64,000 nt of DNA from a virus: IMG/VR virus record IMGVR_UViG_3300045988_076381. One strand, 5' to 3'. Of this stretch, positions 3,041-58,372 are shown piece after piece. The notes under the pieces were generated by a model. That model ran no database searches, had not been told where the DNA came from, and saw nothing but the letters and a program-made list of their open reading frames with translations. The first letter of the stretch is position 1. Each line of letters opens with the position of its first letter. Both the position numbers and the translations under genes were made by a program.

Positions 3041-5020
3041 TTAAAATATTATAGGTTTATTTTCTTCTTCATATTTCCGGAGAATTAACTGCTTTTTATA
3101 GTATTTAAGCATCTTCTCTATATCAGATTTTAAATATTCTAGAACATACTCATTAACTTCACCATCGTGAGTAAAGTGAACAATTCTTAGCTCATCAATA
3201 ATTAAATCCGGATTTTGTTTTTGAAGCATCCATGCGTAAAGAGATAATTGAAGAGTATAATGTAAGAAGTTACAATCCATTATATTATTTAAAGGGTATT
3301 TCATCATTTGATACTTCTTCTTTTTAGGATCAAAATAGGATTTTTGTTTTAATTTCTTATTAGTATTATGTGTTGGAATCATAGAATATCCAAACAAAAA
3401 AGTATGAGAAGGACTATCTACTTCAATACATTGTGTTGGAATAGTATCTACTTTTTCTACAGATTTAATATTTCTATAATGATTCTTAGACCCATTAGAT
3501 AATTCAATATTTTGATTTCTAGTTAAAAAAGGGTTTAAATCATTACTAGAAAAACAAATATCATATCCTAGAAAAATTTTACCATCACACTTCTTTTTTA
3601 CATTAAATATTGTTCCTTTTAAACCTAAACTAGATATTAATTTAATTGTATCGTCTGCTTGCCATCTTTGAGTAGTTGACATTACAAATCTTCTCCTTTC
3701 TTTATGATAGTATCCGTCAGTATCCATCAGTCCTCTAAGAAGATCTAATCGTTGTTCAAATGAAGCCCTCAGATATATATCAGGAATATGTTTATATTCT
3801 AATACTCCTAATTGTTTTAGCTTTGTACGTAAACCATAAATTGTTTTACATTCTACATTAGCTCTATCTGGATTATGTTGAGCATTTTCTCCTATATCAT
3901 ATCCTCTAGATTTAATTTCTTCCCATAATGGAGAATCTTTTCTTTGAGTAATTAGTCCACATGATTTTGAACCGTCACCAAGCCAACAACCTAATACATA
4001 TGGATCTATAGGTAAATCTGCTTTTGGGAGATTTAAAGGTTTAGCATTAAGTATTTTTGGAAGTTCTTCTGATTTAATTTTTATTCTTTTTTCTTTTCTA
4101 TTATTTATATCTTCTAATAGATAATGTAATTCCTCAGTTGTCATTACTTTATTTGTATATTTTTTGTTTTTTAAGAAGGATATAAACCAACGATGTTCGT
4201 GATCTGCTATAATACTTTCAGAATTATCAAAAGTTATTTTATAACAAGGATTATAATGTATTTCAGATTTATGTACTACTTTAGTTATATTTCCATCCTT
4301 ATCAAAAATTTCTTCTCCTTCTTTAATATCCTTTATAGTTGTCCATCCAGATTTAGTTGCAATTGGCGTGTCTAAAGGTAATCCTTTCCAGTCCCATACT
4401 TTGATATGATTTCCATTTTTAATAATTAAATCAGATTGTCCAGCAATACGTAACATTCCTTCTGGATCTATATAAGAAATTAACATTTCCGGTATAATTC
4501 CTGTATCTATATCTAAATTATGATGATTTTTATATACAGGAATAGTTCCTCCTAAATTAAATCTCTTAATCATTTTCTCAGCATGATTATAAAATCCAGT
4601 TTCTTGTTCTGCATGTATCTCAGTACCATACTCACAAGCTATCCTATTTGTTTCTCCCCAATCTTTTACATATTTATTACAAGTCTCTTCAAATACTTCT
4701 TTTGTAATACTATCTGGAATATAAGAATCATCCCATTTTTTAGTATTTAATAAAGAACTCTTTACATTAATAAAATCATTTCCCATTAACTCTTCTAACG
4801 CCTTATACTTCTTCCAAAAATCTGAATCAAACTTATTCTCGAACTCTCCAATTAAAGTAGTTACAGAAATAAATTTTTTTCCTTCACCTACTCCCTTTTT
4901 ACCTACATACACATGTTTCTCATCATTGTATGTAACATCATCGTTTTCCTTATCGACGATTAAATCATTACCATCGAAGGAGAAGTATTTAACATCTCCT
5001 TCATTCATACTCATAGTCAT
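3041..5020 (-). CDS. PD-(D/E)XK (RecB/Cas4-like) nuclease precursor containing an intein
   Basis: Extein motifs are GTEIHAEQE, SDLII..., VWDWK|...|TNKK (D-x-K-T) and HYTLQLSLYAWML (QxxxY). A 340-aa insert follows the catalytic Lys. Confidence 0.75.
   Translation of the reverse strand: MTMSMNEGDVKYFSFDGNDLIVDKENDDVTYNDEKHVYVGKKGVGEGKKFISVTTLIGEFENKFDSDFWKKYKALEELMGNDFINVKSSLLNTKKWDDSYIPDSITKEVFEETCNKYVKDWGETNRIACEYGTEIHAEQETGFYNHAEKMIKRFNLGGTIPVYKNHHNLDIDTGIIPEMLISYIDPEGMLRIAGQSDLIIKNGNHIKVWDWKGLPLDTPIATKSGWTTIKDIKEGEEIFDKDGNITKVVHKSEIHYNPCYKITFDNSESIIADHEHRWFISFLKNKKYTNKVMTTEELHYLLEDINNRKEKRIKIKSEELPKILNAKPLNLPKADLPIDPYVLGCWLGDGSKSCGLITQRKDSPLWEEIKSRGYDIGENAQHNPDRANVECKTIYGLRTKLKQLGVLEYKHIPDIYLRASFEQRLDLLRGLMDTDGYYHKERRRFVMSTTQRWQADDTIKLISSLGLKGTIFNVKKKCDGKIFLGYDICFSSNDLNPFLTRNQNIELSNGSKNHYRNIKSVEKVDTIPTQCIEVDSPSHTFLFGYSMIPTHNTNKKLKQKSYFDPKKKKYQMMKYPLNNIMDCNFLHYTLQLSLYAWMLQKQNPDLIIDELRIVHFTHDGEVNEYVLEYLKSDIEKMLKYYKKQLILRKYEEENKPIIF
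3365..4384 (-). mobile_element. intein (class-3-like) with LAGLIDADG homing endonuclease domain
   Basis: The N-terminus GLPLDTPIAT matches block A but has Gly in place of Cys1. Block B is IIADHEHRW (Trp at B12). LAGLIDADG motifs are LGCWLGDGS and LLRGLMDTDGYY. Block F is QCIEVDSPSHTFLF (Cys at F4). Block G is IPTHN|T (Thr at G5). Confidence 0.8.
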
Positions 5021-10799: not shown

Positions 10800-11828
10800 T
10801 TATATTAAATCTATATTATTTAAGTTATTATATATATTCACAATCCTTTCCTTAAATTCTTTAATAGATAAATTACTCTTCATTACATTAATCTTATCCT
10901 CACAAATAACAATATTTCCTTTTATATATCCTTTATTAGAATCTATCCTATCCACAGAAGGTCTATAATCTTTTGAAAACGGGATTCCAGAATAATAACA
11001 TTTCCCCTCTTGTGCTTTGTACATCTCATTTAAATATTCTTCTGTAATATCCAATTCCTTTTTTATATTATTTTTATTACTATAATTATATTTTCTATAC
11101 TCACAATTTCTTTTACATTTATCTAATAACCACTTTCCTATATTTTCCCATTTCTTTTCTTCCTCTTCATCTCGTGCACACTTACTACATAAGAAATTTC
11201 TATGCTTATCAAATTTAGAAGGATCTGTTTCTCCACATTTTATACATAATTTATCAGAGTGTTTATATATAACCCTTTCTTCAGTATTCTCACCTTTTAA
11301 TAATTTAGAATTAACTTGATATCCTTTAGGTGTTTTTAAAAGAGTGTACTTAGGATGTGAGATTTTTAAAGTTATATCTTTTGTATTCTTAAGTATTCCA
11401 AATAAACCTTCTGTATTAAATTCTTTTAATCTTCTTGTAATATTATAAATAGTTCCAATAACACAATCTATATTATTATCATCTAAAATTCGTTTTAATT
11501 CTCTAGCTGGAATTTTATCATATGATGGTAGAATGTTATAAAACATTAGAATGAAAGCTTTGTTGTTTAATGTTAGATCTGGATTAGTTAAAAAATCTGG
11601 ACAAGATAATGATGTATGAATTTTAAATCTTGGAGCGAAGCCATTGCTGGAACAATCTTCAATATCTCCAGATGAAATTAAATGTTTTGTGGATACTTTT
11701 ATTACTTCATCACTTATACCGTAAGTAGATAATTGGGAAGATAAAATACTTGCAATTTCGTCTTCTTCTTTAAATGCATTAAGGATTCTTAATACTACTT
11801 CTAATTTAAAATTTTCAATTGTTTTCAT
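10800..11828 (-). CDS. free-standing HNH-type endonuclease-like protein
   Basis: The C-terminus reads EGKCYYSGIPFS...SVDRIDSNKGYIKGNIVICEDKINVMKSN (HNH-like). Zinc-ribbon CxxC pairs occur at CIKCG...CSKC. Confidence 0.55.
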   Translation of the reverse strand: MKTIENFKLEVVLRILNAFKEEDEIASILSSQLSTYGISDEVIKVSTKHLISSGDIEDCSSNGFAPRFKIHTSLSCPDFLTNPDLTLNNKAFILMFYNILPSYDKIPARELKRILDDNNIDCVIGTIYNITRRLKEFNTEGLFGILKNTKDITLKISHPKYTLLKTPKGYQVNSKLLKGENTEERVIYKHSDKLCIKCGETDPSKFDKHRNFLCSKCARDEEEEKKWENIGKWLLDKCKRNCEYRKYNYSNKNNIKKELDITEEYLNEMYKAQEGKCYYSGIPFSKDYRPSVDRIDSNKGYIKGNIVICEDKINVMKSNLSIKEFKERIVNIYNNLNNIDLI

Positions 11829-14594: not shown

Positions 14595-14664
14595 TTCTTA
14601 GTAGTTTAACTGGTGAAAATGTCATATACAGTAGGAAATATTAGTTCGAATCCAATCTAAGAAG
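14595..14664 (+). tRNA. aberrant tRNA-like sequence (anticodon arm not foldable)
   Basis: It has a 7-bp acceptor ttcttag/ctaagaa, a D arm gttt/aaat and a T arm attag-ttcgaat-ccaat. I could not form a 5-bp anticodon stem. Confidence 0.3.
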
Positions 14665-19440: not shown

Positions 19441-19680
19441 ATGAGTACAGAAATACTTTCATATAATAAATTCCAAGAGGTTTTAAATCCTTATAAGGAA
19501 TTTTGTGTGGAGATGTGTGAGGTTTTAGATACTACAAGAGTTCTTATATCTGAAATATTATCTATCACTCCTCTTAATTTAGAGCTTCCGGATATAAATA
19601 GAATTATTGAAGAGAATCAATTAGATTTAGATTTAACAACTGAGAAATTATTACTTGAAATTGATAAAATGTTTGTGTAA
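19441..19680 (+). CDS. hypothetical protein
   Basis: 79-aa ORF with a 2-nt gap to its neighbour. Confidence 0.55.
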   Translation: MSTEILSYNKFQEVLNPYKEFCVEMCEVLDTTRVLISEILSITPLNLELPDINRIIEENQLDLDLTTEKLLLEIDKMFV

Positions 19681-19916
19681 TGGATATTATATATTTAGAA
19701 TGTGAATGTAATTGCTCTGAACATTTAATTCGCTTCATCTCTTATGAAGGGGAAGAGGAGATTTATATAGAATATTATTTAAATCCGGAATTGAGTTTTT
19801 GGAAGAGATTGAAAATTGCTATTAAATATTTATTTAATAGAAAATGTAAATTCGGAGCATTTGATGAAGTAATTGTAAATAAGGAAAGATTAAAAGATCT
19901 TTTAAATAAATTATAA
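19680..19916 (+). CDS. hypothetical Cys-containing small protein
   Basis: 78 aa. The start overlaps the previous stop. Confidence 0.55.
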   Translation: MDIIYLECECNCSEHLIRFISYEGEEEIYIEYYLNPELSFWKRLKIAIKYLFNRKCKFGAFDEVIVNKERLKDLLNKL

Positions 19917-19920
19917 TAAA

Positions 19921-20091
19921 ATGTATATTATTGTAGGTTTTATATTATTATTATTGTCATGGGGTATATACTACCATGCTGAGAATTACTGTGAGTTAGA
20001 GCTTGGAGAATTTGAAAAGCTTATAGCCATAATACTAATGATGTTCAGTCTATTGTTAATTCCTATAGCAATATTTCAGAAATTATTATGA
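19921..20091 (+). CDS. small membrane protein (not in ORF track, 56 aa)
   Basis: MYIIVGFILLLLSWGIYYH...LLLIPIAIFQKLL. Its stop overlaps the next start (ATGA). Confidence 0.45.
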   Translation: MYIIVGFILLLLSWGIYYHAENYCELELGEFEKLIAIILMMFSLLLIPIAIFQKLL

Positions 20092-20759
20092 TAAATATAG
20101 CAGAAATAATAAAAAGATTTCCAGAAAATTTTAAGTATTATAACATACTTACTGGAATTTGTACAGTAGAAATACTTGAGAATGATGATATTGAAATTTT
20201 TCCAGGAAATATTATACTAAATAAATATGGACAACATTCATCTTTTGAAGCTTCTGAATGTATCTTATTTCCTAAAAAAGACTATCGGGATTGGGAGACT
20301 TATTTGATTGATTCTGGATATAGAATAAATATCTTTTCTAGATTGGCAGGATTAGATATATCCAATAGAATGTTTTATTATGAGGGTATTGGAGATTGCA
20401 AGATTGAATTGAATTTCGAAAAACATACTATTGAAGTATATACATCTACTTCACCTGATTGCGTAGATATATTAAATGAATTTGGATTTGGTTACACATT
20501 TTTAAAACTTTCTAAATATTCTTCTTATTTAGACTGGTTGAATATTCCTAAAGAGTTACCACTTGGAGCTTTAGTAGTTGCATCAAATAATAAAACATTT
20601 TGGTCAATAGGAACATATGAAGGAAATCAATGTGTAACTACAACTTTTCCAAAAAGGATAAGTACAAGATATCAGTATATAGTTCTATATAATTTATTCA
20701 ATTTAGAAACAGGAGAATTTCCGGAATCTGAAAATTATGGATGTGCTAAAAAGGATTAG
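20088..20759 (+). CDS. hypothetical protein
   Basis: 223-aa ORF that ends in TAG. Confidence 0.6.
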   Translation: MINIAEIIKRFPENFKYYNILTGICTVEILENDDIEIFPGNIILNKYGQHSSFEASECILFPKKDYRDWETYLIDSGYRINIFSRLAGLDISNRMFYYEGIGDCKIELNFEKHTIEVYTSTSPDCVDILNEFGFGYTFLKLSKYSSYLDWLNIPKELPLGALVVASNNKTFWSIGTYEGNQCVTTTFPKRISTRYQYIVLYNLFNLETGEFPESENYGCAKKD

Positions 20760-27238: not shown

Positions 27239-28006
27239 ATGGATAAAAACAGAAAACTAGAATTTGAGGGAAAGATATTTCCTACGAATAATTGTGGCGA
27301 GCTAAAAATCATCGAATATAATGGAGCAACTAATGTAGTGGTGGAGTTTATTACTACTAAAACTATACATTCTACCACTATGAATAACATCAAGAAAGGA
27401 TCAGTATCCGATCCTATGTATCCAACAGTATATGGAATAGGATATATGGGTATAGGAGAGTATAAAAGTAGGACTGGGACTAGTCCTCAAACAACTTGCT
27501 ATAAACGATGGAAAGAAATTCTTAATCGATGCTATAATCCTAAATGTTCTGCTTATAAATTTTATGGAGGAAATGGAGCAATTATATGTGAAGAATGGAA
27601 AAATTTCCAAAATTTTGCATCTTGGTGGTATTCTAACTTTCCAAATTGGGAAGGAATTAAAATTGCTATAGATAAAGATTTATTATGTAAGGGAAATAAG
27701 GAATATTGTCCTGAATACTGCTGCTTTTTACCTCAAGAAATAAACGAAGCTCTTACTTTAAGAAAAAAGGAAAGAGGGGATTATCCAGTTGGAGTACGGT
27801 TAAAAGAAGGAAAAATTATTGCTCAAATTAATTACATGGGAAATAAAAAACATTTAGGAACATTTTCCACTGTTGAAGATGCTTTTGCAAAATATAAAAT
27901 AGAAAAGGAAAAGTGTATGAAAGAATATGCTGATAAATACAAAAATATACTTTCGGAGAGAGTGTATCAAGCATTATATAACTACACTATAAATATAGAT
28001 GATTAA
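27239..28006 (+). CDS. intron-encoded homing-endonuclease-like protein with AP2 DNA-binding domain
   Basis: YKRWKEILNRCYNP....YKFYGGNGAIICEEWKNFQNF is common in phage proteins annotated as HNH/AP2. The C-terminus YPVGVRLKEGKIIAQINYMGNKKHLGTFSTVEDAFAKY is AP2-like. Confidence 0.55.
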   Translation: MDKNRKLEFEGKIFPTNNCGELKIIEYNGATNVVVEFITTKTIHSTTMNNIKKGSVSDPMYPTVYGIGYMGIGEYKSRTGTSPQTTCYKRWKEILNRCYNPKCSAYKFYGGNGAIICEEWKNFQNFASWWYSNFPNWEGIKIAIDKDLLCKGNKEYCPEYCCFLPQEINEALTLRKKERGDYPVGVRLKEGKIIAQINYMGNKKHLGTFSTVEDAFAKYKIEKEKCMKEYADKYKNILSERVYQALYNYTINIDD

Positions 28007-28359: not shown

Positions 28360-29004
28360 ATGTTAGTTCTAGATAATATTAATTCAGTCTCGGATGTAAT
28401 TACAAATTCCTCATCGGAATTATTTGTAATAAACGATAAAAATACTACATTAGACCATCTTAAGAATATAATCAATCCTATATTAGATGGTTATTATGAA
28501 CCATTTGTATTTAATTTAGATACGTTTAGAAAATGGGTAGAAAGTTCCGAAGAGGATAATTCTACGGATATAGACGCATGTTTTCAGACTATATACGACT
28601 GGTTCATTGATTTAGAGTGTCCTAGTGGTTTAACTTACTATATTAGGGATACTCTTTATAAGTTACGGTTAGAGGACTATATTAAATTAGAAAATAGTCT
28701 ACTTAAAGAATTATACGCGGAATTAATTAAAAAGTATGATACTAATTATTCCTCATATAAAGAAATTGAAGCTTTTCTTCAAACATATGATGAAGACAAA
28801 ATAAACAAAATCATAGACTATTTGCTAAATACAAATTTCGAATATGACATTCGAAAATTAAATGGAAAGATTATTCTCCTTTCCGAGGAGGAGAATTCCA
28901 TTTCATGTAGTAGAAAATTTAACCGCTCAGAATTTGCGGAAGATTCTGATGTATTTCAATGGCTTGAGCATAATTTTAATATTACATATTATCATTTAGG
29001 ATGA
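28360..29004 (+). CDS. hypothetical protein, SD(I/V)ITNSSSE family member 1
   Basis: N-terminus MLVLDNINSVSDVITNSSSELFVI. Confidence 0.6.
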   Translation: MLVLDNINSVSDVITNSSSELFVINDKNTTLDHLKNIINPILDGYYEPFVFNLDTFRKWVESSEEDNSTDIDACFQTIYDWFIDLECPSGLTYYIRDTLYKLRLEDYIKLENSLLKELYAELIKKYDTNYSSYKEIEAFLQTYDEDKINKIIDYLLNTNFEYDIRKLNGKIILLSEEENSISCSRKFNRSEFAEDSDVFQWLEHNFNITYYHLG

Positions 29005-29426
29005 GATTTAAAATACATTCAATATCAGATATTATAACAAACAGTAGTTCAGAAGTATTTCTTGTTTCTAAAGATAGTGAGATAAAGAATATAAAAGGAT
29101 TGCAAGAGAAACTGAATTTAGGAGACGTATCTGATTTACTAAAGTTTATACATACTTATAGTTGGGGTATAGATAAAGACTATAATTATGGAGATTTATG
29201 TATAACACTTGATCATATACGTGATATAACTAATGCTTTCAGTAACTACTTCAATGATAGTGACTGGGATGATAATATCTCAAAAATAGGTATATTACGT
29301 GATGAGATGTACAAAGTATTTGCTGAGAGTTTTAAAGATATAGTAGCTATAGTAATAGATAATGGCTATTATTATGAATTTATTGCAAATAATCCAAATT
29401 TAAAATATGAAAACTTTCCATATTAA
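29001..29426 (+). CDS. hypothetical protein, SDIITNSSSE family member 2
   Basis: N-terminus MRFKIHSISDIITNSSSEVFLV, with an ATGA overlap onto member 1. Confidence 0.6.
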   Translation: MRFKIHSISDIITNSSSEVFLVSKDSEIKNIKGLQEKLNLGDVSDLLKFIHTYSWGIDKDYNYGDLCITLDHIRDITNAFSNYFNDSDWDDNISKIGILRDEMYKVFAESFKDIVAIVIDNGYYYEFIANNPNLKYENFPY

Positions 29427-29715
29427 AATTCATTCTATTTCAGATATTATTACTAATAGTAGTTCCGAGACCTTTTGTTTTATTTATAGTGAAGATATAT
29501 CTAAAGTATTAAAAGTATTATCTCCTTATTTTGGGAACTATGATGTTTTTGATGAATGTTGTGCACAAATATATGGTCCTTTTCAAGAAGGTATAGAGGA
29601 TCCTTATATTGAAATTAGATGTTCCGAAGATTATAGACCTTCGTTACTAGAAGAAGGATTAAGATATGTATTAGATAAAAATAATATTGATTATACAATA
29701 TCAAAAGAAGAATAA
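29407..29715 (+). CDS. hypothetical protein, SDIITNSSSE family member 3
   Basis: N-terminus MKTFHIKIHSISDIITNSSSETFCF, with a 20-nt overlap onto member 2. Confidence 0.6.
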   Translation: MKTFHIKIHSISDIITNSSSETFCFIYSEDISKVLKVLSPYFGNYDVFDECCAQIYGPFQEGIEDPYIEIRCSEDYRPSLLEEGLRYVLDKNNIDYTISKEE

Positions 29716-30007
29716 AAAATATCTTTATATATGGAGTCAATAATAGAGTTCCAATAATTTTTGTATTTGATTCTAAATACTATAATGAAACTACTATAAG
29801 TAATATATTAAATAAACTATTAGAGCCTGAGGGAAGATCATACGAAGATTTCTTTAGAAAGATCCAACCGGCTATTGAAGTAACAACATGCTGCAATCCT
29901 AAAGACTTAGTAGTACTAACTTATGAGATACCCTATTGGATGAGACTTTATTTAGAGAATTTACATAATGTAAAAGGTTATAGTTGTTTAACTTTATAAA
30001 TTAAGAG

Positions 30008-30475
30008 ATGAAAGATTTTAAACACTTTGGAGTTAGGTTTAAAGGTATAAGTAGTTGTAATTATACCGCAATATGGAGTAATTTAATTACAATACGTCTT
30101 GGAGATAAAGAGATTAAAGAACTTCCAGCAGATAAAGCTGAGTTTTATGACGTTTCATTAGGAGATAAATGTGTTACTGGGAAATGTAATTTCTGCTTAG
30201 TACCAGAAACACATATACTTACTAATGAGGGTGATAAATATATAACAGACATAAAAACAGAAGACTTAGTGTTTTCTTACAATGAGTGTAGTGGAGATAT
30301 TGAGTTAAAAAAAGTAGACCAAGTATTTGAAAGAGTATATGAAGGAGAACTTATTGAAGTGGTTACAGAAATCGGAACTTTAAGACTGACTCCGAATCAT
30401 AAAATATATACTAGAAATAGAGGATGGATTGCAGCGTGTAATCTACAAGTGTCAGACGAATTGTTAGAATTTTAA
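30008..30475 (+). CDS. radical-SAM-like protein N-extein (aa 1-62) fused to split-intein N fragment (aa 63-155)
   Basis: The extein ends ...LGDKCVTGKCNF. The intein half starts at 30194 with CLVPETHILTNEGDKYITDI (block A), then TLRLTPNHKIYT (block B), then a stop codon. Confidence 0.7.
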   Translation: MKDFKHFGVRFKGISSCNYTAIWSNLITIRLGDKEIKELPADKAEFYDVSLGDKCVTGKCNFCLVPETHILTNEGDKYITDIKTEDLVFSYNECSGDIELKKVDQVFERVYEGELIEVVTEIGTLRLTPNHKIYTRNRGWIAACNLQVSDELLEF

Positions 30476-30509
30476 TATCCGAAAAGTTGGAAGTATTAAA
30501 ATAGATTAT

Positions 30510-30517
30510 TATTTTTG
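30510..30517 (+). promoter_or_regulatory. -7 box TAttTTTG upstream of the free-standing HNH gene
   Basis: It lies 31 nt upstream of the ATG at 30548, in the 72-nt spacer after the N-intein stop. Confidence 0.4.
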
Positions 30518-30547
30518 TATATAAAATAATAACTAATTTTAATACTT

Positions 30548-31669
30548 ATGAAAACATGTAAATATTGTGGATGTGATATATCCCACCTAAGAGCTAATGC
30601 TACCACTTGTGGATCGAGAGAATGTATAAATGCGTATAGAAGAGAACGTAAATCCAAACCTAAGGAGCCAAGAACTTGCGAAATTTGTGGAACGTCTATA
30701 GACGATCTTCCTGGACAAAGGAGAATTTGTAAAAATCCAGAATGTGAAGCGGAGCAAAAAAGAAGAAAATATGCACAGGCCTTAAAAGAAAAAATATGTA
30801 AAAAATGTGGAGATACTTTCCTTGGCACTTCTAAACAAACCTGTTGTGAAAACTGTAGAAAACATAAAGATATAACATTTAAAGTTATAGAACAGAAAGT
30901 AGTTTGTGAAGATTGTGGAGCCTTACTAAGGACCGAAAGTAAAAAAGTTAATGGAAAAACTAAGGAGATTATAGCAAAAGGAATGTGTGATGATTGTAAA
31001 CAAAAACATAGAGAGAAACTTAGTTTACAAATGAAAGAACATAATCCTATGTTTGATCCTGAGATAGTTAAAAAAACTTCGGAGACAAGACGATATAAGT
31101 ATCTACAAAAATGTGAAGAAGAAGAAAGGCTTCCTTATGTAAGAAAAGGATGTAAAGGTGAAACTAGGGAAGAAATGATTCAAAGAATGAAAGAACACAA
31201 TCCTATGTTTGATCCTGAAACTAGAGCAAAGGTCAGCAAAACTCTTAAAGAAAAAATTTTATCTGGAGAAATTATTTATGCTAAAGGTCCAGAACATCAT
31301 TTGTGGAAAGGTAATAGAAATTTTAATAAGGCAGTACGTATAGAATTAAGAAAATGGGTTAAAGAACAAATGGAAAAGGTTCATTATATATGCCAAAAAT
31401 GTGGGAAAACACGCACCGAATTACATGTACACCATTTACATCCATTAAGGGATATAATTTTGGATACTTTAAATAAAAATAATTTAACTATCATAGATAT
31501 AAATAGTATGGAGGGTTCAGAACAATATTTTGATATAATTAAACAAATAATTGAATATCATTATCAACATAATGATATCGGAATTGTTGTTTGTCCCCAA
31601 TGTCATAATGAACTAGATAGTTATTATAAAAGAAAAACTCATGAAAATAGTAAGTATAAAGAAAGTTAA
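30548..31669 (+). CDS. free-standing HNH homing endonuclease with zinc ribbons and NUMOD3-like repeats
   Basis: At least four CxxC...CxxC ribbons. MKEHNPMFDPE occurs twice (NUMOD3-like). The HNH core is HVHHLHPLRDI...VCPQCHNELD. The gene lies between the two intein halves. Confidence 0.75.
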   Translation: MKTCKYCGCDISHLRANATTCGSRECINAYRRERKSKPKEPRTCEICGTSIDDLPGQRRICKNPECEAEQKRRKYAQALKEKICKKCGDTFLGTSKQTCCENCRKHKDITFKVIEQKVVCEDCGALLRTESKKVNGKTKEIIAKGMCDDCKQKHREKLSLQMKEHNPMFDPEIVKKTSETRRYKYLQKCEEEERLPYVRKGCKGETREEMIQRMKEHNPMFDPETRAKVSKTLKEKILSGEIIYAKGPEHHLWKGNRNFNKAVRIELRKWVKEQMEKVHYICQKCGKTRTELHVHHLHPLRDIILDTLNKNNLTIIDINSMEGSEQYFDIIKQIIEYHYQHNDIGIVVCPQCHNELDSYYKRKTHENSKYKES

Positions 31670-32522
31670 TTATAATGGAAAGGTATATAATATTGGAGTG
31701 AGAGATAATAATAATTATTTTGCATCTAATATTTTAGTACATAACTGCTATGTATCTTCTAATCCAAATGGGGAGTATTATACTAATGTATGTGAAACAT
31801 GGAAGAAGTTTATTGCTACATTTGCTCCAGATAAGAAAGAAAAGAATATCACTATCACAGAAAAACCCTTTCAAATAGCGATTGGATCTGAAGGCTCTGC
31901 GGACGAGTCGCCGGAGTTCTGTGATTTCTTGGAAACTGTATATAATACTGGAGTAGTTCCTAATTATACTACTAACGGAGTAATTCTATCATATTATGAT
32001 AAGCCTGGAACAGAATATTATGACTTGGCGAATAAAATCCTTAAATATACTCACGATTATGTAGCAGGAGTTGCTGTCTCGTTTGGAAACAAATCTCTCC
32101 GATCTTATGCAGAAAATGCTATAAAAGGATTATTAGAAAAAGGAGATTGTCATATTAATATTCATCATATAATATCTGATAAAGCCTCTGTACAAGACTT
32201 TATAGATAGTTGGTATAATTACTCAGACGATATAAAATATCATGTCCTATTGCCTCTAATGCCCTCTGGAAGGTCTACTAAAGGATTAGAACCAGGAGTA
32301 TGGGAAATTCTAGAAAAAGCGATTAAAGATTTAAATATTACAAATGTTGCCTTTGGAGCTCATTTTTATAAATATCTAACAGATTCATCAATTAAAGCTT
32401 GGATATATCCTCCCGAAAGTTTAAGTAAGAATATGATTCTTAAAAATGGGAAAGTTATTATTACTCCAAGCTCCTTTGATTTAACTCCTATTAAAACATT
32501 TGATTTTAATGAGAAAATATAA
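31641..32522 (+). CDS. split-intein C fragment (35 aa) fused to radical-SAM-like C-extein
   Basis: MKIVSIKKVNYNGKVYNIGVRDNNNYFASNILVHN|CYVSS matches blocks F and G with a +1 Cys at 31746. The extein has IGSEGSADESPEF and YTTNGVIL (radical-SAM-like). Confidence 0.7.
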   Translation: MKIVSIKKVNYNGKVYNIGVRDNNNYFASNILVHNCYVSSNPNGEYYTNVCETWKKFIATFAPDKKEKNITITEKPFQIAIGSEGSADESPEFCDFLETVYNTGVVPNYTTNGVILSYYDKPGTEYYDLANKILKYTHDYVAGVAVSFGNKSLRSYAENAIKGLLEKGDCHINIHHIISDKASVQDFIDSWYNYSDDIKYHVLLPLMPSGRSTKGLEPGVWEILEKAIKDLNITNVAFGAHFYKYLTDSSIKAWIYPPESLSKNMILKNGKVIITPSSFDLTPIKTFDFNEKI

Positions 32523-49537: not shown

Positions 49538-50761
49538 ATGAAGAATAAAATTTTACAACTAAGTAAGAATTGTAATAGTCTAGAAATAGCTAGAATACTA
49601 TCATTATCTCTAAATGAAGTAGAAAAAGTTTTAATTGATGAATATTTTCAAAAGAAATGGAAGATATCTAAAAAGGATCTTGAAGAATTAGCTGCAAGAA
49701 TCTATAATGAATCTCCAACTCTACTATCAGATGAATTTAATATATCAGAAGTAACATTAAAAAAATATTTAGCAGATTGCAAATTGTTTAATACTAAGAA
49801 AAATGTTATCTATGTTCAAAAATCAGAGGAAGAAATTGAAAAATTAGTTCCGGATATAGTTTTAGATTATAATAACCAATTATCTATTGCACAATTAATG
49901 GTTAAATATAAGTTATCTAAAGATAAAGTTAAAGAAATTTTACATAATAATGAAATTTCAACCGGAAAAGTGACCTGTAATGAACATATATTTGATATAA
50001 TTGATTCGGAAGAAAAGGCATATTGGCTAGGGTTCCTATATGCAGATGGAGCAGTGGGGAGTGCTGATAATACTATTGAATTAGCATTAAAACTTTTGGA
50101 TTGTAAACATCTATATAAATTCAAAACTTTTATAGAAGCCAAAAGGGATATAAAAATAGAAACTAGTAAAGTTAAAAGATGCAGATTCTCTGTAAGTAGT
50201 AAACATTTAAAGTCACAACTTATTAAATTAGGTTGTACTCCTCAAAAGTCCTTAACTCTTAAATTTCCAACTAAAGAACAAGTTCCAGATGACTATATCA
50301 TTCCATTTATAAGAGGGTATTATGATGGAGATGGAATATTAACATATAGTTGTTCTACCACTGGTAGAACAGTTTTAGCTACTGGTATGTTGGGAACTGA
50401 AAATTTTTTAACTGGAGTTTTAAGTAAGTTTAAGTATCCATTACATTCTATTTTGCGTTTAGCTAGTTTGGAAGGATCAAGCGAATGTAAACAAGTAAAT
50501 TGGTCAAAAACTGATTCTGAGGAGTTTTTAAATACTATTTACAAAGATGCTACAATTTTTTTGGATAGAAAATATTTACGATACAAATATTTTAAAGACA
50601 ATGGATTTGCCGTCCAAAAAAGTAATTTTTTGGATAATGACAGAGCAATATCGGAAGAGTCTAAACAATGGATTAATCAGTATTTTAGTATAGATATTGA
50701 TTCCTTATTGCATGATAATTCCGAGATAAATATAGAAAGTAACGATTCTATATCATCGTAA
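49538..50761 (+). CDS. intron-encoded double-motif LAGLIDADG homing endonuclease
   Basis: The motifs are KAYWLGFLYADGAVG and FIRGYYDGDGIL, with N-terminal HTH-like repeats. The stop codon TAA lies within the ribozyme block tcgTAAcgcgtag. Confidence 0.8.
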   Translation: MKNKILQLSKNCNSLEIARILSLSLNEVEKVLIDEYFQKKWKISKKDLEELAARIYNESPTLLSDEFNISEVTLKKYLADCKLFNTKKNVIYVQKSEEEIEKLVPDIVLDYNNQLSIAQLMVKYKLSKDKVKEILHNNEISTGKVTCNEHIFDIIDSEEKAYWLGFLYADGAVGSADNTIELALKLLDCKHLYKFKTFIEAKRDIKIETSKVKRCRFSVSSKHLKSQLIKLGCTPQKSLTLKFPTKEQVPDDYIIPFIRGYYDGDGILTYSCSTTGRTVLATGMLGTENFLTGVLSKFKYPLHSILRLASLEGSSECKQVNWSKTDSEEFLNTIYKDATIFLDRKYLRYKYFKDNGFAVQKSNFLDNDRAISEESKQWINQYFSIDIDSLLHDNSEINIESNDSISS

Positions 50762-57097: not shown

Positions 57098-58372
57098 AAG
57101 TAAAATTTTTTTATTGTATTTTATTTGTTTTATTTCATTAAATGTATTTAATTTGTATATTATTAAATTATACAATAAAAATACATTTATGAATAATCTA
57201 AATCAAGCTATTAGTGATTACGAACATTTATTTATAGGAATTTGTGAATTAAGTAAAAAATATAAAATTCCTAATAAAGAAATTAGAAAAGCGTTAGAAG
57301 ATAAAGGATATTATTTAGGAAAAGGAGTATCTCCAAAAAGTGTTGTGCATATTAAACTTGCAGTAGAGGAATATAAAAATATTCTTAATGCTGGTGAAGA
57401 ACCTAATATTCATCAACTGGCATTAAAGTATGATATTTCCGATACGTCTATAAAAGACAATTTAATTAGATTAAATCTTCCTGTTGTAAGATACCCTAAA
57501 AAAATCCATTTTGATGAACATGTCTTTGATGTTATAGATACTGAAGAAAAAGCATATTGGCTAGGATTTTTAACTGCTGATGGGTATATTTATAGTAGAG
57601 ATAATACATTTGGAATTAGTCTAGCTAGTATAGATAAGCATCATGTAGAAAAATATGCCACATTTCTTAAATGTCCTCAACATGTTAAATTTAAGAATAA
57701 CGAATATGCTGGAATATATAGATGTGATTTAGGAAACGCTCATGTAAAGCAAGTATTACAAAAATATGGATTTACTGCTTCTAAATCTTTTGACTGTACC
57801 TTTTTAAAAGACCAGTTTTTTGCAAATTCCGATTTAATAAGACATTATATTAGAGGATATTTTGATGGAGATGGCTGTGTCAGTTATAAAAAAAAGTATA
57901 GAAAAACAATTAATGCCACTATTTATATTCCGATAGTTTCTATAGTTGGAACAGAAGCTTTTTTACAAGAATTAAGAAATAAATCAAATTTAATTTGTCT
58001 TTTTCAGTCACAACAAAATCTATGGAATTTATATGGATCTGGAAAAAAGGCAAAAGATTTTCTTTATTACATTTATAATAACGCTACTATTTATTTAGAT
58101 AGAAAATACAATATTTATAGAAATTATATTGCCCCACACTTAGAGAAATCAAGTGTTCCGCAGTGGCCAATATCGGTGGATACTGAAATGTAAATACCGA
58201 GATAAATTCAGAGATTACGAAAGGCTCTGAATCATCGTAACGCGTAGAAGGTGAATAAATATAATCCTTCCAAGAGTGGCTGCCACCTTAAAGGGTGAAA
58301 ATGTACGCTGAACTATATCGAATAACAAGATATAGAAATAAAGGATAAAAAGCCTTTATGATAACAAAATTG
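57098..58372 (+). mobile_element. group-I-like intron carrying a LAGLIDADG endonuclease ORF
   Basis: It starts after ...acaggT and ends ...gataacaaaattG. It has the core blocks gtaacgcgtag (58237-), ccaagagtg (58270-), gtacgctgaac and gataaaaagcc. Confidence 0.75.
57189..58193 (+). CDS. intron-encoded double-motif LAGLIDADG homing endonuclease
   Basis: KAYWLGFLTADGYIY and YIRGYFDGDGCV. It is clearly a paralog of 49538..50761. The ATG at 57189 is preferred over 57114. Confidence 0.8.
   Translation: MNNLNQAISDYEHLFIGICELSKKYKIPNKEIRKALEDKGYYLGKGVSPKSVVHIKLAVEEYKNILNAGEEPNIHQLALKYDISDTSIKDNLIRLNLPVVRYPKKIHFDEHVFDVIDTEEKAYWLGFLTADGYIYSRDNTFGISLASIDKHHVEKYATFLKCPQHVKFKNNEYAGIYRCDLGNAHVKQVLQKYGFTASKSFDCTFLKDQFFANSDLIRHYIRGYFDGDGCVSYKKKYRKTINATIYIPIVSIVGTEAFLQELRNKSNLICLFQSQQNLWNLYGSGKKAKDFLYYIYNNATIYLDRKYNIYRNYIAPHLEKSSVPQWPISVDTEM

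Follow-up and report, generated by a model that had tools for sequence, protein, structure and literature searches.

How can a phage enzyme gene be read when its two halves lie in separate open reading frames (ORFs), with an endonuclease gene between them? The question is raised by positions 30008-32522 of a viral DNA stretch of 64,000 nt (IMG/VR record IMGVR_UViG_3300045988_076381; this whole stretch is hereafter called the window), which hold three co-oriented ORFs and a spacer. We read the locus, with a probability of roughly 0.85, as a fractured gene, in which a radical-SAM gene is interrupted before its third [4Fe-4S] cysteine by a split intein, with an HNH gene between the intein halves, and for which protein trans-splicing and homing are proposed. 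Three proteins would be translated separately, namely the N-extein with the N-intein (ORF1, 30008..30475, 155 aa), the HNH protein (373 aa), and the C-intein with the C-extein (ORF3, 31641..32522, 293 aa). The acidic N-intein (net charge -9) and the basic C-intein (+4) would associate to form a HINT fold, and trans-splicing through Cys1, the TPNH motif, the HN pair, and Cys+1 would then yield a 320-aa enzyme with the sequence ...GKCNF-CYVSS... restored. The HNH enzyme would cut the intein-free alleles of co-infecting relatives, and such a cut would lead to the whole cassette of intein and HNH gene being copied in.

All coordinates and sequences were recomputed and equal those of the initial annotation to the base, so that its ORF layout, from the N-extein to the CYVSS start of the C-extein, can be adopted as it stands (Table 1). 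ORF1 and the HNH gene share one reading frame, whereas the first 29 nt of ORF3, read in another frame, are shared with the 3′ end of the HNH gene. In every lineage, the C-half differs in frame and begins at its own ATG, which is residue 1 of the C-intein, and a purine-rich, Shine-Dalgarno-like stretch lies upstream of this start in all of them. The insert (30194..31745) measures 1552 nt, a length not divisible by 3, and its removal leaves a joined extein of exactly 320 aa, in agreement with the earlier estimate of roughly 320 aa and with the length of the uninterrupted homologs.

Table 1. Features of the interrupted radical-SAM locus, with positions in the window.
Feature	Position	Strand	Length	Description
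N-extein, radical-SAM gene	30008..30193	+	62 aa	Ends in ...DKCVTGKCNF; contains C55 and C60, cluster cysteines 1 and 2
N-intein	30194..30475	+	93 aa	CLVPETHILT...TLRLTPNHKIYT...ELLEF; Cys1 opens CLVPE...; block B TPNH; then TAA stop
Spacer	30476..30547	+	72 nt	AT-rich, 15% GC; four in-frame TAA codons; conserved TTATTTTTGTATATA block at ~30505-30523
HNH gene, free-standing	30548..31669	+	373 aa	Four Cys4 zinc-ribbon-like modules, two RMKxxNPM repeats, C-terminal HNH core
C-intein	31641..31745	+	35 aa	MKIVSIKKVNYNGKVYNIGVRDNNNYFASNILVHN (MKIVSIKK...NILVHN); start codon lies within the HNH gene near its 3′ end, out of frame with it
C-extein	31746..32522	+	258 aa	First residue is the +1 Cys (31746-31748), the third cluster cysteine C63

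The boundaries of the insert are set by alleles that do not carry it. Uninterrupted 320-aa homologs, 93-97% identical to the joined extein, are encoded on syntenic phage contigs, and the N-extein is colinear with their residues 1-62. Four such alleles (L002-L005) lack exactly 30194-31745, with 98% DNA identity resuming precisely at 31746, the +1 Cys codon; at the insertion site, the L002 allele reads ...GGGAAATGCTCGTTTTGTTATGTA.... Against these intein-free alleles, the insert can be delimited to the codon. Many contigs carry the interrupted allele, and many carry the uninterrupted one. The exact ORF1 protein occurs on 55 contigs. The locus is not an artefact, since the exact proteins recur on numerous independent contigs, the longest of 168 kb. 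The source phages are AT-rich (27.5% GC) and about 165 kb in size, and a megablast search with 10 kb against GenBank phages returned a 64-nt match only.

The two short fragments that the initial annotation took for intein halves were searched against profiles, and both belong to the HINT class. When fused, the N- and C-halves score 49.9 bits against Pfam Intein_splicing (cutoff 35.8) and 44.4 bits against PT-HINT (cutoff 27.7), and since both cutoffs are exceeded, the intein anatomy is not a chance resemblance. ORF1 alone reaches 32.3 bits with PT-HINT (cutoff 27.7), and the C-intein aligns to positions 122-155 of the 155 in Intein_splicing (E=1.1e-4). All PDB sequence matches of the intein are themselves inteins, including KlbA, RadA, and DnaX, and the best of them is the NrdJ-1 split intein (E=2.1e-8), the closest solved structure to the fused intein. 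An AF2 model of the fused intein, built from an alignment with N-halves only, is poor (pLDDT 61.9 overall and under 50 in the C-intein); with this low-confidence model as query, each of the top 50 Foldseek matches is a HINT domain (TM 0.6-0.78), and Npu DnaE is among the matches. A tblastn search of GenBank phages with the N-intein found only distant inteins (at most 37% identity) in other host genes.

The residues expected of a splicing intein (C1, T66-P-N-H69, H127-N128, and C+1) are all present in the window, and C1, T66, P67, H69, the terminal HN, and C+1 are invariant across six lineages. The C-intein is always 35 aa long, always starts with MKI, and keeps VYNIGV...LVHN without change, while the opposite charges of the halves recur in relatives (N-intein -5 to -10, C-intein +4 to +7). 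The break falls after ...SDELLEF, between blocks B and F. By these motifs, the element is a class-1 intein broken at the usual endonuclease-insertion point. Its 93 and 35 aa, which had been likened to natural split inteins, do lie within the ranges of 88-105 and 33-54 aa given by Dassa et al. 2009 (PMC2677866).

The host gene was identified through structure prediction because the extein alignment, searched as a profile against the PDB, gave spurious pentatricopeptide-repeat matches along with one weak radical-SAM match. The AF2 model of the joined extein is confident (pLDDT 92.3, pTM 0.91), and its top 39 PDB matches in Foldseek are all radical-SAM proteins (SuiB at 1e-8, DesII, NifB, PqqE, and MoaA), in support of the radical-SAM-like host proposed earlier. 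At the sequence level, Pfam Radical_SAM (PF04055) gave nothing at E<=1 on the window's joined extein; the domain is precomputed on many homologs of about 60% identity, and NCBIfam rSAM families match relatives only weakly. The cluster motif in the window has a variant spacing, C55-x4-C60-x2-C63, and relatives P0043, L009, L012, and L014 carry the canonical Cx3Cx2C. The three cysteines are invariant in 67 homolog sequences, and the +1 Cys is indeed the last of the Cx4Cx2C motif, as the initial annotation had it. The host is thus predicted to be an enzyme of the radical-SAM fold, for which radical-SAM chemistry would be expected.

The reading frame between the intein halves matches the HNH family PHROG 1271 (E=3.5e-16), and its core, C282-x2-C285 ... 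H295 H296 ... C349-x2-C352-H353 (CxxC...HVHH...CxxCH), is invariant in 21 homologs, which bears out its assignment as an HNH endonuclease; the Pfam HNH profile gives 17.1 bits on the window protein, below its cutoff of 21.4. The further label NUMOD3-like was not borne out, as Pfam NUMOD3 (PF07460) has no match to the protein at E<=1 and only a repeated RMKxxNPM motif is seen, present twice and conserved in the family (MKEHNPMFDPE is repeated in the window protein). Every sampled HNH homolog is located between radical-SAM split-intein halves, and a tblastn search of GenBank phages with the HNH protein found zero matches. The middle gene is described here as a putative HNH homing endonuclease, with cleavage and homing as its probable roles.

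How the downstream ORFs would be expressed was approached through the spacer. A TAttTTTG promoter motif had been proposed there, and the corresponding sequence TATTTTTG is present at 30510-30517; yet the Bacteroidota-type motif TAnnTTTG is unenriched in the window (81 found vs 91 expected), and a scan for sigma-70 promoters and terminators around the locus stays at chance level (17 sigma-70-like sites found vs 17.1 expected), so that neither scan demonstrates a promoter for the HNH gene or the C-half. The TTTGTATATA block of the spacer is kept in the distant L006 lineage while its flanks diverge, and with one mismatch allowed it occurs 46 times in the window vs 37 expected, which is not significant; the conservation of this block alone hints at a control element.

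The three-part arrangement is present in at least seven lineages, the modules of which have co-diverged to 41-66% identity. In the comparison with L007, the intein has a dN/dS of 0.05, the HNH gene one of 0.09, and the extein one of 0.23, and deeper pairs give 0.1-0.4; by these ratios, all modules are under purifying selection. Other relatives show different states of the same site. In P0246/L017, the intein is a contiguous mini-intein without endonuclease, and in L009-L011 a single ORF encodes an in-frame fusion of N-intein and HNH, with the C-half still a separate ORF. The L006/L015 lineage is a TAG-recoded phage in which the HNH copy contains six in-frame TAG codons. For the window's own phage, a search for TAG recoding gave no clear evidence; no suppressor tRNA was found in the window, where an extra Rfam tRNA (14595-14664) has a degenerate anticodon arm. 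In L007, L011, and L017, a second insertion is also observed, between IAIG and S; it was considered as a group I intron, for which Rfam gives no match in these three.

Could the interruption simply have killed the gene, so that a mobile HNH insertion left two non-functional remnants and no mature enzyme? Phages tolerate the loss of accessory genes, the radical-SAM gene is broken further in L007 and L011, and the SAM-binding GGEP-like motif of the window is off consensus (IGSEGSADE vs the family's IGSEGEPTE). However, the SADESP variant of this motif also occurs in the intact alleles P0001 and L006, both exteins and both intein halves are intact and evolve under purifying selection in seven or more lineages separated by dS>1, and all splicing residues are invariant, which makes a dead gene highly improbable. 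A functional enzyme might also be assembled without peptide-bond formation, the intein halves acting as interaction domains in the manner of Aeh1 NrdA. Functional genes-in-pieces that do not splice have a precedent, cited in Dassa 2009 (PMC2677866), and charge-complementary halves would dimerise anyway; but the residues that are invariant across lineages (Cys1, the TxxH of block B, the closing HN pair, and Cys+1) need to be so for splicing chemistry only, and the C-x2-C of the cluster would stay split by about 128 intein residues unless these were spliced out. We consider such non-covalent assembly very unlikely.

A continuous precursor, produced by recoding (readthrough, frameshift, or bypass) or by RNA splicing and amounting to a contiguous intein with an internal HNH domain, could draw on the common frame of ORF1 and the HNH gene, on the true N-intein::HNH ORFs of L009-L011, and on the reading of TAG as Gln in the L006/L015 lineage. 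Against it stand the four TAA stops in the spacer, an HNH gene that has no TAG codon in the window, a C-half that is off-frame in every lineage, with its own start and the Shine-Dalgarno-like stretch before it, and remains a separate ORF even where the other two parts are fused, and an Rfam search of the window that found no intron. This possibility appears extremely remote, and trans-splicing of separately translated halves remains the reading that we carry forward.

As the initial annotation recognized, split inteins flanking a free-standing endonuclease have been described before. Dassa, London, Stoddard, Schueler-Furman, and Pietrokovski (Dassa et al. 2009, NAR 37:2560, PMC2677866) reported such fractured genes at the gp41-1, gp41-8, NrdJ-1, IMPDH-1, and NrdA-2 loci. 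Those loci share with the present one the co-oriented order of N-extein plus N-intein, short non-coding spacer, free-standing endonuclease gene, and C-intein plus C-extein, as well as the break at the endonuclease-insertion point, the oppositely charged halves of similar size, the overlap between endonuclease and C-half ORFs, and the phage origin; one of them, NrdJ-1, supplies the best PDB sequence match of the window intein. They differ in their hosts (enzymes of DNA synthesis and repair there, a radical-SAM enzyme here), in spacer length (27-51 nt vs 72 nt), in source (marine cyanophage-like reads vs the AT-rich, 165-kb phages), and in their endonucleases, which are GIY-YIG and Vsr-like there, with HNH only predicted, and of a zinc-ribbon HNH type here. 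The assignment of the locus to the fractured genes of Dassa et al. is well supported, and the host enzyme class and zinc-ribbon HNH type are unreported in that study; the combination earlier called unusual is so in these two respects, whereas the arrangement itself belongs to the described class.

Other systems share only parts of this design. The cyanobacterial DnaE inteins (Ssp/Npu) are likewise class-1 split inteins that have Cys1 and Cys+1, an N half that is acidic, and a C half of 35-36 aa that is basic, but their halves are unlinked, whereas the two halves here are neighbours at a single locus, still separated by the endonuclease gene, and sequence similarity is low. Aeh1 nrdA (Friedrich et al. 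2007) also has a free-standing, HNH-type mobE-like gene between the halves of a phage enzyme gene; no intein is involved there and the halves associate non-covalently, whereas complete splicing motifs flank the break here. Contiguous inteins with HNH domains combine the same two components, as do the in-frame fusions of L009-L011, but the window encodes its HNH protein in a gene of its own. Campylobacter phage IBB_35 was also considered and set aside, its inteins and radical SAM being separate features.

The locus had further been called an intermediate between a contiguous endonuclease-bearing intein and a true split intein. Protein searches found no fully contiguous HNH-bearing intein at the radical-SAM site; the contiguous mini-intein and the N-intein::HNH fusions are seen instead. 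Both fit the Dassa et al. 2009 (PMC2677866) model of invasion of a mini-intein by a free-standing endonuclease, with in-frame fusion as a possible later step. The stages seen are an empty allele, a contiguous mini-intein, a three-ORF fractured gene, an N-intein::HNH fusion, and an HNH gene dependent on TAG suppression. A tentative and rather doubtful extension is that the family preserves nearly every step of endonuclease entry into inteins and of gene breaking, and that splicing on an Fe-S ligand gates cluster assembly: since Cys1 and Cys+1 adjoin two other cluster cysteines, splicing could depend on redox or iron state. This position makes the intein a candidate for conditional splicing, and if such splicing took place, a 'selfish' element would act as a post-translational regulator.

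With this locus, the range of fractured genes would extend from enzymes of DNA metabolism to one of the radical-SAM class, and from GIY-YIG and Vsr-like endonucleases to the HNH type that the authors in 2009 had only predicted. The window intein (93 + 35 aa), a compact split intein with Cys1 and Cys+1, is an addition to the structural group of gp41-1 and NrdJ-1, two widely used tools in protein engineering. With hundreds of contigs and both alleles co-circulating, the family is a well-sampled natural system for studying homing and the model of gene breaking and endonuclease capture. A sister radical-SAM family is also available alongside the lineages, at least seven in number, that have diverged from one another.

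The window carries the gene for a predicted radical-SAM-fold enzyme in two pieces, separated by the halves of a split intein and a free-standing HNH endonuclease gene, a layout described under the name 'fractured gene' by Dassa et al. 2009 (NAR 37:2560; PMC2677866). All three ORFs lie exactly where the initial annotation had placed them. ORF3 starts 29 nt upstream of the HNH stop codon and in a different frame, and since the inserted block (30194-31745; 1552 nt) is not divisible by three, one continuous in-frame intein is impossible.

Coordinates of the fractured radical-SAM gene, of the second insertion in related loci, and of neighbouring genes
Feature	Contig	Position	Size	Remarks
ORF1	window	30008-30475	155 aa	MKDF...SLGDKCVTGKCNF, then N-intein from 30194: CLVPETHILT...TLRLTPNHKIYT...SDELLEF and stop
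Spacer	window		72 nt	between ORF1 and HNH ORF; 15% GC; four TAA codons in ORF1 frame
HNH ORF	window	30548-31669	373 aa	
ORF3	window	31641-32522	293 aa	opens with MKIVSIKKVNYNGKVYNIGVRDNNNYFASNILVHN, then CYVSS...
Second insertion	L007	7880-9377	1.5 kb	with GIY-YIG gene
Second insertion	L011	6963-7432	470 nt	without ORF
Second insertion	L017	about 3556-3830	about 270 nt	
'TNSSSE' small genes (three paralogs)	window	28360-29004; 29001-29426; 29407-29715		directly upstream of radical-SAM gene
HNH gene	window	27239-28006		phrog_953, E=1e-60
Endonuclease VII/HNH-like gene	window	10800-11828 (-)		
'Endonuclease' genes (two paralogs)	window	49538-50761; 57114-58193		phrog_4645

Profile searches bear out the proposal that the two fragments are intein halves. 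ORF1 by itself exceeds the Pfam PT-HINT cutoff (32.3 bits; cutoff 27.7), ORF3 residues 1-35 align to the final 34 positions of Pfam Intein_splicing, and both curated cutoffs are exceeded once the halves are fused in silico (Intein_splicing 49.9 bits, cutoff 35.8; PT-HINT 44.4 bits, cutoff 27.7). The class-1 splicing residues are complete (Cys1, T-P-N-H of block B, terminal H-N and Cys+1), and among solved structures the NrdJ-1 split intein is closest by sequence (E=2.1e-8), ahead of the KlbA, RadA and DnaX inteins. The AF2 model of the fused halves is of low quality (pLDDT 62; C-part without alignment rows), and the HINT domains that make up all of its top 50 Foldseek matches, including NrdJ-1, gp41-1 and Npu DnaE, are supportive only. 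JGI's automatic label for the N-half was already 'intein/homing endonuclease'.

The joined extein (62 + 258 = 320 aa) has 824 homologs, the top ones being uninterrupted 320-aa proteins with 93-97% identity over 100% of the length, and their alignment is continuous across the junction ...GKC(N/S)F-CYVSS.... Four intein-free ('empty') alleles (L002-L005; contigs of 69-161 kb) encode one such protein and are all syntenic with the window, with the same 214-aa and 141-aa genes upstream and the same 106-aa, Metallophos, 156-aa and 142-aa genes downstream. DNA identity to these alleles returns at 98% precisely from 31746, where the +1 Cys codon begins; with 30194-31745 excised, the N-extein matches the empty allele base for base in the alignment, its final ~15 nt holding several differences that are mostly synonymous (TGT AAT TTC TGC vs TGC TCG TTT TGT). 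Proteins identical to those of the window occur on many independent contigs of up to 168 kb (ORF1 on 55), and halves of 293 aa and uninterrupted proteins of 320 aa fall together in the 90%-identity cluster of ORF3; therefore, both alleles co-circulate in one phage population.

A Pfam search of the window's joined extein gave no match. Homologs at ~60% identity carry PF04055 with the canonical Cx3Cx2C motif and show weak NCBIfam matches to the MoaA, viperin and rSAM-maturase families, and tblastn matches spanning the junction were obtained to radical SAM-annotated genes of T4-like Klebsiella and Citrobacter phages. By its AF2 model (67-sequence alignment; pLDDT 92.3, pTM 0.91), the host is a radical-SAM-fold enzyme, all of the top 39 matches in a PDB fold search being radical-SAM enzymes (among them SuiB, DesII, NifB, GDGT-MAS, PqqE, EpeE, MoaA and BlsE). 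Because C55, C60 and C63 are invariant in 67/67 aligned sequences, the intein +1 Cys is the third cluster ligand, in agreement with the earlier claim that it becomes the last cluster cysteine; the Cx4Cx2C spacing is peculiar to the window's lineage.

The 373-aa middle gene had been described as HNH/zinc-ribbon/NUMOD3-like. Its HNH character is supported by PHROG 1271 (HNH endonuclease; E=3.5e-16), the Pfam HNH score of 17.1 bits falling under the 21.4 cutoff, and its zinc-ribbon-like character by eight invariant CxxC pairs, equivalent to four Cys4 modules, in a 21-sequence family alignment that also contains two RMKxxNPM repeats and an invariant core CxxC...HVHH...CxxCH; NUMOD3 was not detected by Pfam in this gene. 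Judged by gene context, the endonuclease appears bound to the radical-SAM insertion site: every homolog with fetched context (L006, L007, L008, L012-L014, L015) lies between radical-SAM split-intein halves, as does the HNH of the sister radical-SAM family (L018/L019; 34% identity, E=7e-39). A search of GenBank phage genomes with the window's HNH gave no match.

Conservation and selection speak for a functional arrangement. The same break is found in at least seven lineages (window/L007/L008, L006/L015, L012/L013, L014, L009/L010, L011 and the sister family), in each of which the C-intein has 35 aa with an MKI start. Extein, intein and HNH have diverged in step (41-66% identity), and in all lineages the N-inteins are acidic (net charge -5 to -10) and the C-inteins basic (+4 to +7), opposite charges of the halves being a trait that Dassa et al. 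2009 (PMC2677866) pointed out for natural split inteins. In the unsaturated comparison with L007, the intein has a dN/dS of 0.05, the HNH one of 0.09 and the extein one of 0.23, and deeper pairs give 0.1-0.4. A purine-rich SD-like stretch precedes the C-half ATG in each lineage (AGGAGG in L014), and its location inside the coding sequence of the HNH C-terminus suggests that translation of the C-half is coupled.

We infer that the fractured locus yields three polypeptides, and that the intein halves would pair electrostatically and then trans-splice, producing the 320-aa enzyme with its cluster motif whole; in co-infection, the HNH endonuclease would cleave empty alleles, and repair would copy the cassette into them. 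A dead gene with non-functional halves is contradicted by the selection and conservation data, and recoding into a single precursor by the four TAA stops in the spacer, the changed frame of the C-half and the conservation of its separate start. Given the invariant splicing residues and a cluster motif that would remain interrupted, non-covalent assembly of the halves without splicing is also unlikely.

The 26 loci of Dassa et al. 2009 (PMC2677866) come from marine metagenomes, interrupt genes of DNA synthesis and repair, and contain GIY-YIG or Vsr-like endonucleases; the authors also stated that LAGLIDADG and HNH 'could fracture genes'. In contrast, the window combines a radical-SAM host with an HNH endonuclease, neither of which was found in a fractured-gene arrangement in a full-text literature search. 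The window's family adds further stages of their model. In their proposed step IIIa (PMC2677866), the endonuclease gene, its flanks lost, becomes an in-frame part of the intein; ORFs of 563-573 aa that join N-extein, N-intein and HNH in frame, with the C-half separate (P0155, P0163, P0191; L009-L011), are half of this step. Contiguous mini-inteins without endonuclease occur at the same site in the window's family (P0246/L017) and in the sister family (P0266, P0288; 618-624 aa). Of the 'intermediate' proposed in the initial annotation, the split intein with free-standing HNH stands, whereas no fully contiguous HNH-bearing intein was found at the window's insertion site in protein searches, and mini-intein alleles do occur there; a mini-intein invaded by a free-standing HNH is the better description. 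The finding is genuine and its initial interpretation correct. The host enzyme class and the endonuclease type are new, and the insertion lies on an Fe-S ligand, the arrangement itself having been described already; what the finding offers is a new split intein of the gp41-1/NrdJ-1 kind and good sampling of successive evolutionary stages, not a new principle.

In the sister family, a second and larger group of radical-SAM proteins (L018/L019, 4001-6884) found in a T4-like phage context close to rIIB, a related split intein breaks the gene at the homologous cluster Cys, and its HNH gene (316 aa) belongs to the same family as that of the window. With fractured and mini-intein forms in this sister family too, the radical-SAM cluster site is one where inteins insert recurrently.

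Three lineages carry a second insertion in the radical-SAM gene, exactly at IAIG|S in the GGEP-like SAM-binding motif; the window equivalent (31886/31887) is uninterrupted, and a substitution cluster relative to the empty allele L002 (31886-31916) lies right there. The copies share a conserved core, begin after T and end in G, and their RNA fold has a z-score of -5.2, with compensatory changes in 22/55 predicted pairs (three sequences only). Rfam gave no match for this insertion, which is a candidate group I intron; if so, intein and intron would occur in one radical-SAM gene.

In L006 (6543-7682) and L015 (10001-11137), six TAG codons lie in frame within the HNH gene of the fractured locus, which ends in TAA and shows no frameshift. 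All six positions are Gln in the database protein P0138 (97% identical), whose own locus does not give this protein under code 11, so the gene caller used TAG=Gln. Across 21 kb of L015 no gene has a TAG stop, and 9/11 of the in-frame TAGs fall in two HNH endonuclease genes, the second (19554-20468) lying between two RNR large-subunit pieces. The TAG-bearing HNH has a dN/dS of 0.19. These patterns suggest suppressor-dependent, perhaps late, translation of homing endonucleases in this lineage; one analogous TGA-recoded intron endonuclease was reported by Borges et al. (bioRxiv 2021.08.26.457843).

The three 'TNSSSE' paralogs, none with a Pfam match, have in common the N-terminal motif S-x-[ST]-D-[IV]-[IV]-T-N-S-S-S-E; L002, L006/L015, L007, L012 and L017 have 2-4 genes of this kind ahead of the radical-SAM gene. 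Because the radical-SAM domain of the sister family (P0250, P0256, P0288) carries an N-terminally fused domain of ~200 aa starting ...G(L/H/F)ATNSSS(S/T)HS, these proteins may be partners or substrates of the enzyme. L007 and L008 have an intact 89-aa ORF whose counterpart in the window (29731-30000) has lost one nucleotide of a T-run (GAGTTTCC to GAGTTCC, about 29748) and with it the reading frame, the alternatives being a pseudogene and an error in the assembly. The corresponding region of L002-L005 has been reorganised into a fusion ORF of 110 aa, and their close DNA match to the window breaks off at 29460, which places a recombination boundary immediately upstream of the fractured gene.

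The window phage (27.5% GC; relatives about 160-170 kb; DNA polymerase A, large terminase, primase, 6-7 tRNAs) is dense in mobile nuclease genes. L002 lacks the HNH gene at 27239, and L003 and L005 have a T5orf172-type gene in its place. Within the tRNA cluster at 13.6-17.8 kb, Rfam reports a seventh tRNA (14595-14664; 37.7 bits) missed by ARAGORN, which is a tRNA-like remnant or an unusual tRNA, since its anticodon arm is degenerate or shortened.
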